The notes beneath the pieces were generated by a model. It saw only the letters and a list, made by a program, of their open reading frames with translations. It ran no database searches and was not told the origin of the DNA. A DNA stretch of 64,000 nt from Escherichia coli (GTDB lineage: Bacteria > Pseudomonadota > Gammaproteobacteria > Enterobacterales > Enterobacteriaceae). The stretch lies in the NCBI RefSeq assembly GCF_003334305.1, contig NZ_QOWS01000016.1; one strand, given 5' to 3'. The position numbers were made by a program, and so were the translations under genes. Positions 12,567 to 16,710 of the stretch are shown here, one piece after another (position 1 is the first letter of the stretch; each line of letters starts with the position of its first letter).

Positions 12567-12642
12567 ACAGTACTGGGGTAACCTGGTACTGTTGTCCGTT
12601 TTAGCATCGGGCAGGAAAAGCCTGTAACCTGGAGAGCCTTTC

Positions 12643-15600
12643 TTGAGCCAGGAATACACTGAAGACAAAGAAGTCACATTGACAAAGTTAAGTAGCGGCC
12701 GTCGCCTTCTGGAAGCGTTGCTGATCCTTATTGTCCTGTTTGCCGTCTGGTTGATGGCTGCCTTACTAAGCTTTAACCCTTCGGACCCCAGCTGGTCGCA
12801 AACGGCCTGGCATGAACCTATCCATAATTTAGGTGGGATGCCCGGTGCGTGGCTGGCAGATACGCTGTTCTTTATTTTTGGCGTGATGGCTTACACCATT
12901 CCCGTCATTATTGTCGGCGGTTGTTGGTTTGCCTGGCGTCATCAGTCCAGTGACGAATACATTGATTATTTTGCCGTTTCGCTACGCATCATTGGCGTTT
13001 TGGCGCTCATCCTTACCTCCTGTGGTCTGGCGGCAATCAACGCTGACGATATCTGGTATTTTGCCTCCGGTGGCGTCATTGGCAGCTTACTAAGCACTAC
13101 GCTACAACCACTGCTACACAGTAGCGGGGGAACTATTGCGCTGCTCTGCGTTTGGGCTGCGGGCCTGACGCTGTTCACCGGTTGGTCATGGGTGACCATT
13201 GCTGAAAAACTCGGCGGCTGGATTTTAAACATTCTCACCTTCGCCAGTAATCGTACCCGTCGCGATGATACCTGGGTCGATGAAGATGAATATGAAGATG
13301 ACGAAGAGTATGAAGATGAAAACCACGGCAAACAGCATGAATCACGCCGTGCCCGTATTCTTCGCGGCGCGCTAGCGCGTCGTAAACGGTTGGCGGAAAA
13401 ATTCATTAATCCGATGGGGCGGCAAACAGACGCTGCGTTGTTCTCCGGTAAGCGGATGGATGATGACGAAGAGATTATCTACACTGCACGCGGTGTGGCT
13501 GCCGACCCGGACGACGTCCTATTTTCGGGCAATCGTGCAACGCAGCCAGAATATGACGAATACGATCCATTATTAAACGGTGCGCCAATTACCGAACCTG
13601 TCGCTGTAGCAGCTGCTGCTACCACGGCGACACAAAGCTGGGCTGCGCCGGTTGAACCTGTGACTCAGACGCCGCCTGTTGCCTCTGTTGATGTTCCACC
13701 TTCGCAACCTACAGTAGCCTGGCAGCCTGTACCGGGTCCACAAACGGGAGAGCCGGTTATTGCTCCTGCACCGGAAGGTTACCCACAGCAGTCACAATAT
13801 GCGCAGCCTGCAGTGCAATATAATGAGCCGCTGCAACAACCAGTACAGCCGCAGCAGCCGTATTATGCACCTGCAGCTGAACAACCTGCGCAACAACCTT
13901 ACTACGCTCCTGCGGCGGAACAACCTGTTCAGCAACCGTATTACGCCCCTGCGCCAGAACAACCGGTGGCAGGTAACGCCTGGCAAGCCGAAGAGCAGCA
14001 ATCCACTTTTGCTCCACAGTCTACATACCAGACTGAGCAAACTTATCAGCAACCAGCCGCTCAGGAGCCGTTGTACCAACAGCCGCAATCCGTTGAACAG
14101 CAGCCTGTTGTGGAGCCTGAACCCGTTGTAGAAGAGACAAAACCCGCGCGTCCGCCGCTTTACTATTTTGAAGAAGTGGAAGAGAAGCGAGCCCGTGAAC
14201 GTGAACAACTTGCGGCCTGGTATCAACCGATTCCAGAACCGGTTAAAGAACCAGAACCGATCAAATCTTCGTTGAAAGCGCCTTCTGTTGCAGCAGTACC
14301 TCCAGTAGAAGCCGCTGCCGCTGTTTCTCCGCTGGCATCTGGCGTGAAAAAAGCGACACTGGCGACGGGGGCTGCCGCAACCGTTGCCGCGCCAGTCTTC
14401 AGTCTGGCAAATAGCGGTGGACCGCGTCCGCAAGTCAAAGAGGGGATTGGCCCGCAGTTGCCACGACCGAAACGTATCCGCGTGCCAACTCGTCGTGAAC
14501 TGGCGTCTTACGGTATTAAGCTGCCCTCACAGCGTGCGGCGGAAGAGAAAGCCCGTGAAGCCCAGCGCAATCAGTATGATTCTGGCGATCAGTATAACGA
14601 TGATGAAATCGATGCGATGCAGCAGGATGAACTGGCACGTCAGTTCGCCCAGACACAGCAGCAACGCTATGGCGAACAGTATCAACATGATGTGCCCGTA
14701 AACGCAGAAGATGCAGATGCTGCGGCAGAGGCTGAACTGGCTCGTCAGTTTGCGCAAACTCAACAACAACGTTATTCCGGCGAACAACCGGCTGGGGCGA
14801 ATCCGTTCTCGCTGGATGATTTTGAATTTTCGCCAATGAAAGCGTTGCTGGATGATGGTCCACACGAACCGTTGTTTACGCCAATTGTTGAACCTGTACA
14901 GCAGCCGCAACAACCGGTTGCACCGCAGCAGCAGTATCAGCAGCCGCAACAACCAGTTCCGCCACAGCAGCAATATCAGCAGCCGCAACAGCCGGTTGCG
15001 CCGCAGCCGCAGTATCAGCAGCCACAACAGCAGGTTGCGCCGCAGCCACAATATCAGCAGCCGCAACAACCGGTTGCGCCACAGCCGCAATATCAGCAGC
15101 CGCAACAACCAGTTGCGCCGCAGCCGCAGTATCAACAGCCGCAACAACCGGTTGCACCGCAGCAGCAGGATACCCTGCTTCATCCGCTGTTGATGCGTAA
15201 TGGCGACAGCCGTCCGTTGCATAAACCGACGACGCCGCTGCCTTCTCTGGATTTGCTGACACCGCCGCCGAGCGAAGTGGAGCCGGTAGATACCTTTGCG
15301 CTTGAACAAATGGCTCGCCTGGTGGAAGCGCGTCTGGCTGATTTCCGTATTAAAGCCGATGTCGTCAATTACTCTCCGGGGCCGGTTATCACTCGCTTTG
15401 AACTTAACCTGGCTCCTGGCGTAAAAGCGGCGCGCATTTCTAACTTGTCACGGGACCTTGCCCGTTCACTTTCGACGGTGGCGGTGCGTGTCGTTGAAGT
15501 TATTCCTGGCAAACCCTATGTAGGTCTGGAGTTACCAAATAAAAAACGACAAACCGTTTATCTGCGCGAAGTTTTGGATAACGCCAAATTCCGCGATAAT

Positions 15601-16710
15601 CCGTCGCCATTAACCGTGGTGCTGGGTAAAGATATCGCCGGTGAGCCGGTGGTTGCCGATCTGGCGAAAATGCCGCACTTGTTGGTTGCGGGGACTACCG
15701 GTTCCGGTAAATCTGTCGGTGTGAACGCGATGATCCTGAGCATGCTTTATAAAGCACAGCCAGAAGATGTGCGTTTCATCATGATCGACCCGAAAATGCT
15801 GGAGCTTTCGGTTTATGAAGGCATTCCGCATCTGTTAACGGAAGTCGTTACTGATATGAAAGATGCCGCCAACGCGCTGCGCTGGTGTGTTAACGAGATG
15901 GAGCGTCGGTATAAACTGATGTCTGCGCTGGGTGTGCGTAATCTGGCGGGTTATAACGAAAAAATTGCTGAAGCCGATCGCATGATGCGTCCGATTCCAG
16001 ACCCGTACTGGAAGCCGGGTGACAGTATGGATGCCCAGCATCCGGTGCTGAAAAAAGAACCATACATTGTGGTGTTGGTTGACGAATTTGCCGACCTGAT
16101 GATGACGGTAGGTAAAAAAGTGGAAGAGCTGATAGCACGTCTGGCGCAAAAAGCCCGTGCCGCGGGTATCCACCTCGTACTGGCAACTCAGCGTCCATCG
16201 GTTGATGTTATTACTGGTCTGATTAAAGCGAATATTCCGACCCGTATCGCCTTTACCGTATCCAGTAAGATTGACTCACGTACCATTCTTGATCAGGCTG
16301 GCGCGGAATCACTGCTGGGGATGGGGGATATGCTCTACTCTGGGCCGAACTCCACGTTGCCGGTACGTGTCCATGGTGCTTTTGTTCGCGATCAGGAAGT
16401 TCATGCCGTGGTGCAGGACTGGAAAGCGCGTGGTCGCCCACAGTATGTTGATGGCATCACTTCCGACAGTGAAAGCGAAGGTGGCGCGGGCGGTTTCGAT
16501 GGCGCTGAAGAACTGGATCCGTTGTTCGATCAGGCGGTGCAGTTTGTCACTGAAAAACGCAAAGCGTCAATTTCTGGCGTACAGCGTCAGTTCCGCATTG
16601 GTTATAACCGTGCAGCGCGTATTATCGAACAGATGGAAGCGCAGGGGATTGTCAGCGAACAGGGGCACAACGGTAATCGTGAAGTGCTGGCCCCACCGCC
16701 GTTTGACTAA
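12643..16710 (+). CDS. ftsK: ftsK, DNA translocase (1355 aa as encoded here; TTG start)
   Basis: ORF 12643..16710 starts at TTG with protein [27 protein letters not shown]; N-terminal TM domain, Pro/Gln-rich repetitive linker, C-terminal motor with Walker A GTTGSGKS. Confidence 0.95.
14899..15171 (+). repeat. In-frame 39-bp tandem repeat (7 copies, last one degenerate) encoding [13 protein letters not shown] units in the FtsK linker
   Basis: Copies at 14899, 14938, 14977, 15016, 15055, 15094, 15133; unit cagcagccgcaacaaccggttgcgccgcagccgcagtat with point variation. Confidence 0.9.

Follow-up and report, generated by a model that had tools for sequence, protein, structure and literature searches.

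The seven-unit, 39-bp repeat array in the linker of Escherichia coli FtsK is the repeat tract of the typing locus CVN001

The ftsK gene occupies positions 12643–16710 on the + strand of the window, the term used here for the whole stretch of 64,000 nucleotides of Escherichia coli DNA that was analysed. It is an open reading frame encoding 1355 amino acids from a TTG start, and it is the host gene of the repeat array that is the subject of this study, hereafter A2. The TTG start and the N-terminus MSQEY are common to all 12 ftsK alleles compared, including that of K-12 MG1655 (b0890), and because the start codon is shared the lengths of the FtsK proteins are directly comparable across these alleles. 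An in-frame TAA is found at 12625–12627, 18 nt 5' of the TTG (12643–12645). In matching genomes the RefSeq annotation of the product is DNA translocase FtsK, and the neighbouring genes are lrp and lolA.

A Pfam scan of the protein, covering residues 1–1100 of the 1355, returned the expected FtsK architecture of a 4TM membrane domain, an alpha domain and the FtsK_SpoIIIE P-loop motor. The 4TM domain (PF13491, residues 20–191, E 5.5e-42; 12700–13215, + strand) sets the N-terminal limit of the linker, whilst the alpha domain (PF17854, residues 866–966, E 1.6e-29; 15238–15540, + strand) marks the start of the motor, for which the FtsK_SpoIIIE match (PF01580) runs from residue 974. The C-terminal gamma domain (PF09397), which reads KOPS, is precomputed in all 120 listed near-identical E. 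coli FtsK proteins, the scan of the window's own protein having stopped at residue 1100. The linker thus comprises approximately residues 192–865, some 674 amino acids, of which 16.5% are glutamine and 14.5% proline. This is in keeping with the E. coli FtsK linker as it has been reviewed, namely an unstructured, P/Q-rich segment of about 650 amino acids whose length and composition differ among species, which is required for full FtsK activity and which makes contacts with divisome proteins (PMC5357621).

Array A2 lies at 14899–15171 on the + strand and consists of seven in-frame 39-bp units, each encoding 13 amino acids, which together form residues 753–843 of FtsK. Tandem Repeats Finder reports the tract at 14899–15168, with a period of 39, 6.9 copies, 88% matches, no indels and a score of 407, and a repeat search finds copies in register each 39 nt from 14899 through 15171. 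When the tract is cut at 14899 it yields seven units in the frame of ftsK, with one unit peptide occurring twice and a terminal unit that is distinct from the others. The array sits between the 4TM and alpha domains as the last part of the linker, and 22 residues separate its end from the alpha domain. The units differ from one another at 2–9 of their 39 nucleotides. There are 12 variable positions, of which 8 are synonymous third positions and 4 change the encoded residue (P/Q twice, A/P, and Y/D in the last unit). The original prediction, which placed seven in-frame tandem copies in the FtsK linker and described the variation between them as synonymous or near-synonymous, was therefore accurate in its number, its position and the character of the variation.

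Comparison of the seven units gives a pS of 0.42 and a pN of 0.046, hence a pN/pS of 0.11, and on these values the unit peptide is clearly under purifying selection. A pS of this size together with a conserved peptide implies that the units are either old or poorly homogenised. With selection of this kind on its unit peptide, the A2 tract is more than filler, even though its copy number looks neutral.

One of the loci used in generic MLVA of E. coli has a 39-bp unit. The primers published for this locus, CVN001 (PMC8143711, Table 1), both match the window exactly. The forward primer, AACCGGCTGGGGCGAATCC, is found at 14786–14804 on the + strand with 0 mismatches, where 0 such matches would be expected by chance, and the reverse primer, GGCGGCGGTGTCAGCAAATC, at 15250–15269 on the − strand, likewise with 0 mismatches; each site is unique in the window. 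The same primer sites are kept with 0–1 mismatch in the 11 other alleles. The amplicon predicted from the window (14786–15269) is 484 bp, so that (484 − 250)/39 = 6.00 and the allele is MLVA allele 6, and amplicons of 406, 445, 523 and 562 bp from other alleles correspond to n = 4, 5, 7 and 8. One unit falls within the 250-bp offset, the true flank being 211 bp (484 − 273), and MLVA numbers are therefore lower by one than the counts of units given here.

The scheme to which CVN001 belongs (GECM-7/GECM-10) goes back to Lindstedt et al. 2007, to whom both PMC8143711 and PMC5217547 refer. Among Swedish ESBL-producing isolates, allele 4 accounted for 1%, allele 5 for 40%, allele 6 for 40%, allele 7 for 13% and allele 8 for 5%, and ST131 was reported to be monomorphic at the locus (PMC5217547). 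The allele spectrum seen in 60 sampled genomes, which is described below, agrees with these published PCR-based frequencies. Primers, 39-bp unit, 250-bp offset and allele spectrum all match, with no difference of substance between the two. A2 is the repeat tract of the VNTR CVN001; its polymorphism was already known, and the allele in the window ranks among its commonest. None of the cited open-access MLVA papers identifies ftsK as the gene in which CVN001 lies.

The copy number of A2 was counted directly in the 12 alleles. There are five units in K99B, six in K-12 and B, which share an identical allele, seven in the window, WCHEC020031, O157:H7 and AR_0089, eight in 10035776-3 and nine in 19M19 and 47-1826. 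The alleles of APEC E16002 and UPEC 536 are irregular and contain 15-bp mini-units encoding QQPQY. These mini-units, found in B2-type alleles, correspond to units from which 24 bp are missing, indicating that sub-unit deletions also occur. Such 15-bp mini-units give non-integer MLVA sizes in the B2 lineage: the CVN001 amplicons of APEC E16002 and UPEC 536 are 460 and 397 bp, equivalent to MLVA values of 5.38 and 3.77, which fragment sizing would round.

In a wider survey, the 1101 bp around A2 were compared by megablast with the complete E. coli genomes, and each of the 5,426 gave a match. Unit numbers were inferred from the length of the matched span in 60 genomes taken at even intervals from the 5,426, rather than as a full census, and direct counting in 10 of the 60 agreed with the inferred number in every case. 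Seven units, as in the window, is the commonest state in this sample (31 genomes), followed by six (20 genomes); nine units are found in three genomes, five in two and eight in one, and a further three genomes have irregular arrays. Amongst the listed public E. coli FtsK proteins, lengths run from 1355 to 1433 amino acids in steps of 13, with up to 12 units in A2, but this list is ranked by score and biased to long arrays, and hence gives the range of copy number and not its frequencies. The list also holds many distinct FtsK variants of 1407 amino acids (11 A2 units), each from contigs of about 4,733,683 bp, which resemble one strain that has been sequenced repeatedly, with point differences in ftsK.

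The linker contains a second array of the same period. Array A1, at 13850–13966 on the + strand, has three in-frame 39-bp units and was detected both by Tandem Repeats Finder and by the repeat search. In the sample of 60 genomes it has three units in 21, four in 19 and two in 19, with one partial match, and it has 2–4 units in the listed public proteins; no mention of it was found in the cited MLVA papers. Division of the 12 alleles at conserved landmarks leaves an N-terminal portion (378 aa), a middle portion (299 aa) and a C-terminal portion (512 aa) that each have a constant length in all of them, and A1 and A2 between them hold all of the length variation of FtsK. In WCHEC020031 A2 is identical to that of the window and A1 has one unit more, from which it follows that the two arrays change independently.

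This second array bears on the comparison with K-12. The original prediction had put forward A2 as a candidate for copy-number polymorphism and proposed that its units be counted in other E. coli alleles. The polymorphism is real, proceeding in whole 13-residue steps, with 5, 6, 7, 8 and 9 units among the 12 alleles and a 60-genome sample that agrees. It had also put the K-12 FtsK at about 1329 amino acids, which is correct (K-12 MG1655 ftsK is 3990 nt, with the same TTG start), and had equated the 26 additional residues of the window's protein with two extra 13-residue units. The arithmetic holds, but the two units are not both in A2: K-12 has two units in A1 and six in A2, whereas the window has three and seven, so that each array contributes one. 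Size homoplasy is seen amongst the listed proteins, where nine of 1355 amino acids combine two A1 units with eight A2 units and thereby equal the length of the window's FtsK. As two independent 39-bp arrays sum to the length of FtsK, protein length alone does not identify the CVN001 allele.

Some of the alleles are informative about how the array changes. Those of 19M19 and 47-1826 contain the A2 of the window plus an exact nucleotide duplicate of units 1–2 (78 bp), such that the order of units is g h g h i j k l m as compared with g h i j k l m in the window. An exact two-unit duplicate demonstrates directly that units have been gained or lost in register. Units are presumably gained and lost through replication slippage or through unequal recombination between sister copies, the usual mechanism in arrays of this kind. 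Since 39 is 3 × 13, every whole-unit change keeps ftsK in frame, and the sole consequence of such a change would be to lengthen or shorten by 13 residues the tether that joins the motor to its membrane anchor. One unit represents about 2% of the linker of some 674 amino acids. Thirteen residues of extended chain have a contour length of about 4–5 nm.

Change at A2 appears to be slow, in so far as this can be judged by comparing genomes: sampled genomes of equal flank identity share one span, as in three O157:H7 genomes, in the group at 94.5% identity and in the group at 96.2–96.3%. Imperfect units, and alleles that are constant within clones and different between lineages, make A2 usable as a typing marker. 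Selection would act on the composition of a disordered tether and not on its exact length, and variation from about 5 to 12 copies is most probably nearly neutral. The array is thus very probably to be regarded as a slowly changing, nearly neutral in-frame minisatellite, known for typing purposes as CVN001, in the P/Q-rich unstructured linker of FtsK immediately on the N-terminal side of the DNA pump.

A counterpart of this locus has been described in Salmonella. STTR7/SENTR2 is a 39-bp VNTR in the ftsK gene of Salmonella enterica, with 9.3 copies (PMC2430564), and it resembles A2 in its gene, its 39-bp period, its place in a P/Q-rich linker and its use in typing. It differs in belonging to another species and in its higher copy number, and the likeness is drawn here from the literature alone. 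In S. Enteritidis an 84-bp (two-unit) linker indel at residues 757–784, which corresponds to residues 753–843 in the present protein, has been swapped between two strains, leaving survival in egg white unchanged (PMC6137255). With E. coli typed by means of CVN001 since 2007, and the Salmonella counterpart in use for about as long, the present identification has little significance beyond bookkeeping.

Further afield, a scan with the motor domain, using one genome per species, listed 80 loci, none of them from Salmonella. At these 80 listed loci a P/Q tandem array is present in many Enterobacteriaceae between a conserved DDGPxEPLFTP motif and the motor, but its unit differs from one organism to another. 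These arrays are like A2 in having the same position, a P/Q-rich composition and a Y or H at regular intervals, and unlike it in that the unit length ranges from 33 to 54 bp, the sequences differ, or there is no array at all. Citrobacter has 2.7–2.9 copies of a 39-bp unit (QQPPQPVAPQQHY) and 'Escherichia' sp. ESNIH1 has 3.8 copies of a unit of the same length. The unit is 45 bp in Superficieibacter (6.8 copies), 42 bp in Enterobacter sp. Bisph1 (7.4 copies), 36 bp in Leclercia (5.6 copies) and 33 bp in E. cloacae (2.5 copies), and Xenorhabdus and Photorhabdus have (QQP)n. In Escherichia albertii NBRC 107761 the array is short and degenerate, with a run of 11 alanines (QQQPAAAAAAAAAAAPQPQY...) replacing several units just upstream of the motor match. 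Amongst the 80 listed loci those of Yersinia, Serratia, Pantoea, Erwinia, Vibrio, Shewanella and Aeromonas have no array at this spot. What recurs seems to be the P/Q property, the individual arrays being replaced over time.

A rival reading, close to the suggestion in the original prediction that copy number could tune linker length, is that copy number is adaptive. It would tune either how far the DNA pump is tethered from its septal anchor or how many binding sites a P/Q/Y module offers, with lineages carrying a suitable number of units. The linker is indeed needed for full FtsK activity and touches divisome proteins (PMC5357621), but one unit alters its length by only about 2%. Similarly, copy number seems to be bounded, at 5–12 units across several thousand genomes and the listed proteins, but alleles of six and seven units occur together across lineages and hosts that are unrelated, no association being apparent in the 60-genome sample, and an equal length of FtsK is reached by different combinations of A1 and A2. 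Unrelated P/Q arrays with a regular Y or H do occupy the same motor-proximal site in Citrobacter, Superficieibacter, Leclercia and Enterobacter, yet Yersinia, Serratia and Pantoea do without an array there. The strong conservation of the unit peptide in the face of diverged synonymous sites (pN/pS 0.11) also speaks for an adaptive role, but the two-unit swap in Salmonella, the sole experimental exchange of alleles found, brought no change in the one assay used (PMC6137255). Taken as an account of the differences in number between lineages, adaptation is therefore very unlikely.

The nearly neutral minisatellite outlined above has to accommodate one counterpoint, in that both the pN/pS of 0.11 and the repeated occurrence, in several genera, of P/Q arrays with a regular aromatic residue or histidine suggest that the module itself has a role; copy number could then matter at its extremes. 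One speculative suggestion, which is improbable, is that the motor-proximal part of the linker needs a P/Q module that is multivalent and has an aromatic residue at intervals of 11–15 residues, and that in the Enterobacteriaceae this module is regenerated by fresh tandem duplication. Such a module might serve as a semi-rigid, polyproline-like spacer, or as a 'sticker-spacer' tract that aids assembly of the six motors at the septum, and 5–12 copies would then be maintained by stabilising selection.

The remaining alternatives can be set aside almost entirely. Short reads can mis-assemble tandem repeats, and a count of seven might in principle reflect the collapse or expansion of the array during assembly, but there is hardly any chance of this: the 1101 bp around A2 are matched at 100% identity by at least 8 of the sampled complete genomes, which come independently from varied laboratories and hosts, the best match is of at least 99% identity in 982 genomes, the array is only 273 bp long with units that can be told apart by their 2–9 differences, and seven is the modal allele, which fits the commonest MLVA alleles obtained by PCR fragment sizing (PMC5217547). 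An assembly artefact is rejected on the strength of the identical 1101-bp region in those independently sequenced genomes.

It is just as far from probable that A2 is a phase-variable contingency switch or that it codes in another frame or on the other strand. A unit of 39 nt is a multiple of 3 and never shifts the frame, the conserved flanks are intact in the 12 DNA alleles and in 118 of the 120 listed public proteins (the parsable ones), and all alleles examined are in frame and full length, unlike those of a contingency locus; a phase-variable switch is rejected because unit changes in A2 keep the ftsK frame. As for coding elsewhere, stops interrupt only one of the six frames across A2 and open reading frames of 113–260 amino acids overlap it on both strands, but open frames follow from the CAG/CCG-rich composition, and variation in A2 falls at third positions of the ftsK frame in 8 of 12 cases, an excess which shows that only that frame is read. 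The overlapping frames, at 14527–15309 (−), 14876–15262 (−) and 14852–15193 (+), were accordingly rejected as genes and are considered to be compositional artefacts of an array in which five of six frames are stop-free.

Other repeats are present elsewhere in the linker. Just after the membrane domain, at 13279–13320, there is a short repeat of the hexamer GATGAA, with 7 copies and 75% matches, which encodes an acidic stretch of 14 residues. A spaced direct repeat of 47 nt is found at 14624–14670 and 14729–14775, its two copies being 81% identical and 105 nt apart, with the result that a 14-residue peptide is encoded twice. In contrast to the P/Q arrays, the 20-residue motif of the second copy has been kept in the linkers of other organisms, among them Enterobacter, Citrobacter and E. 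albertii, and it may represent a functional element of the linker.
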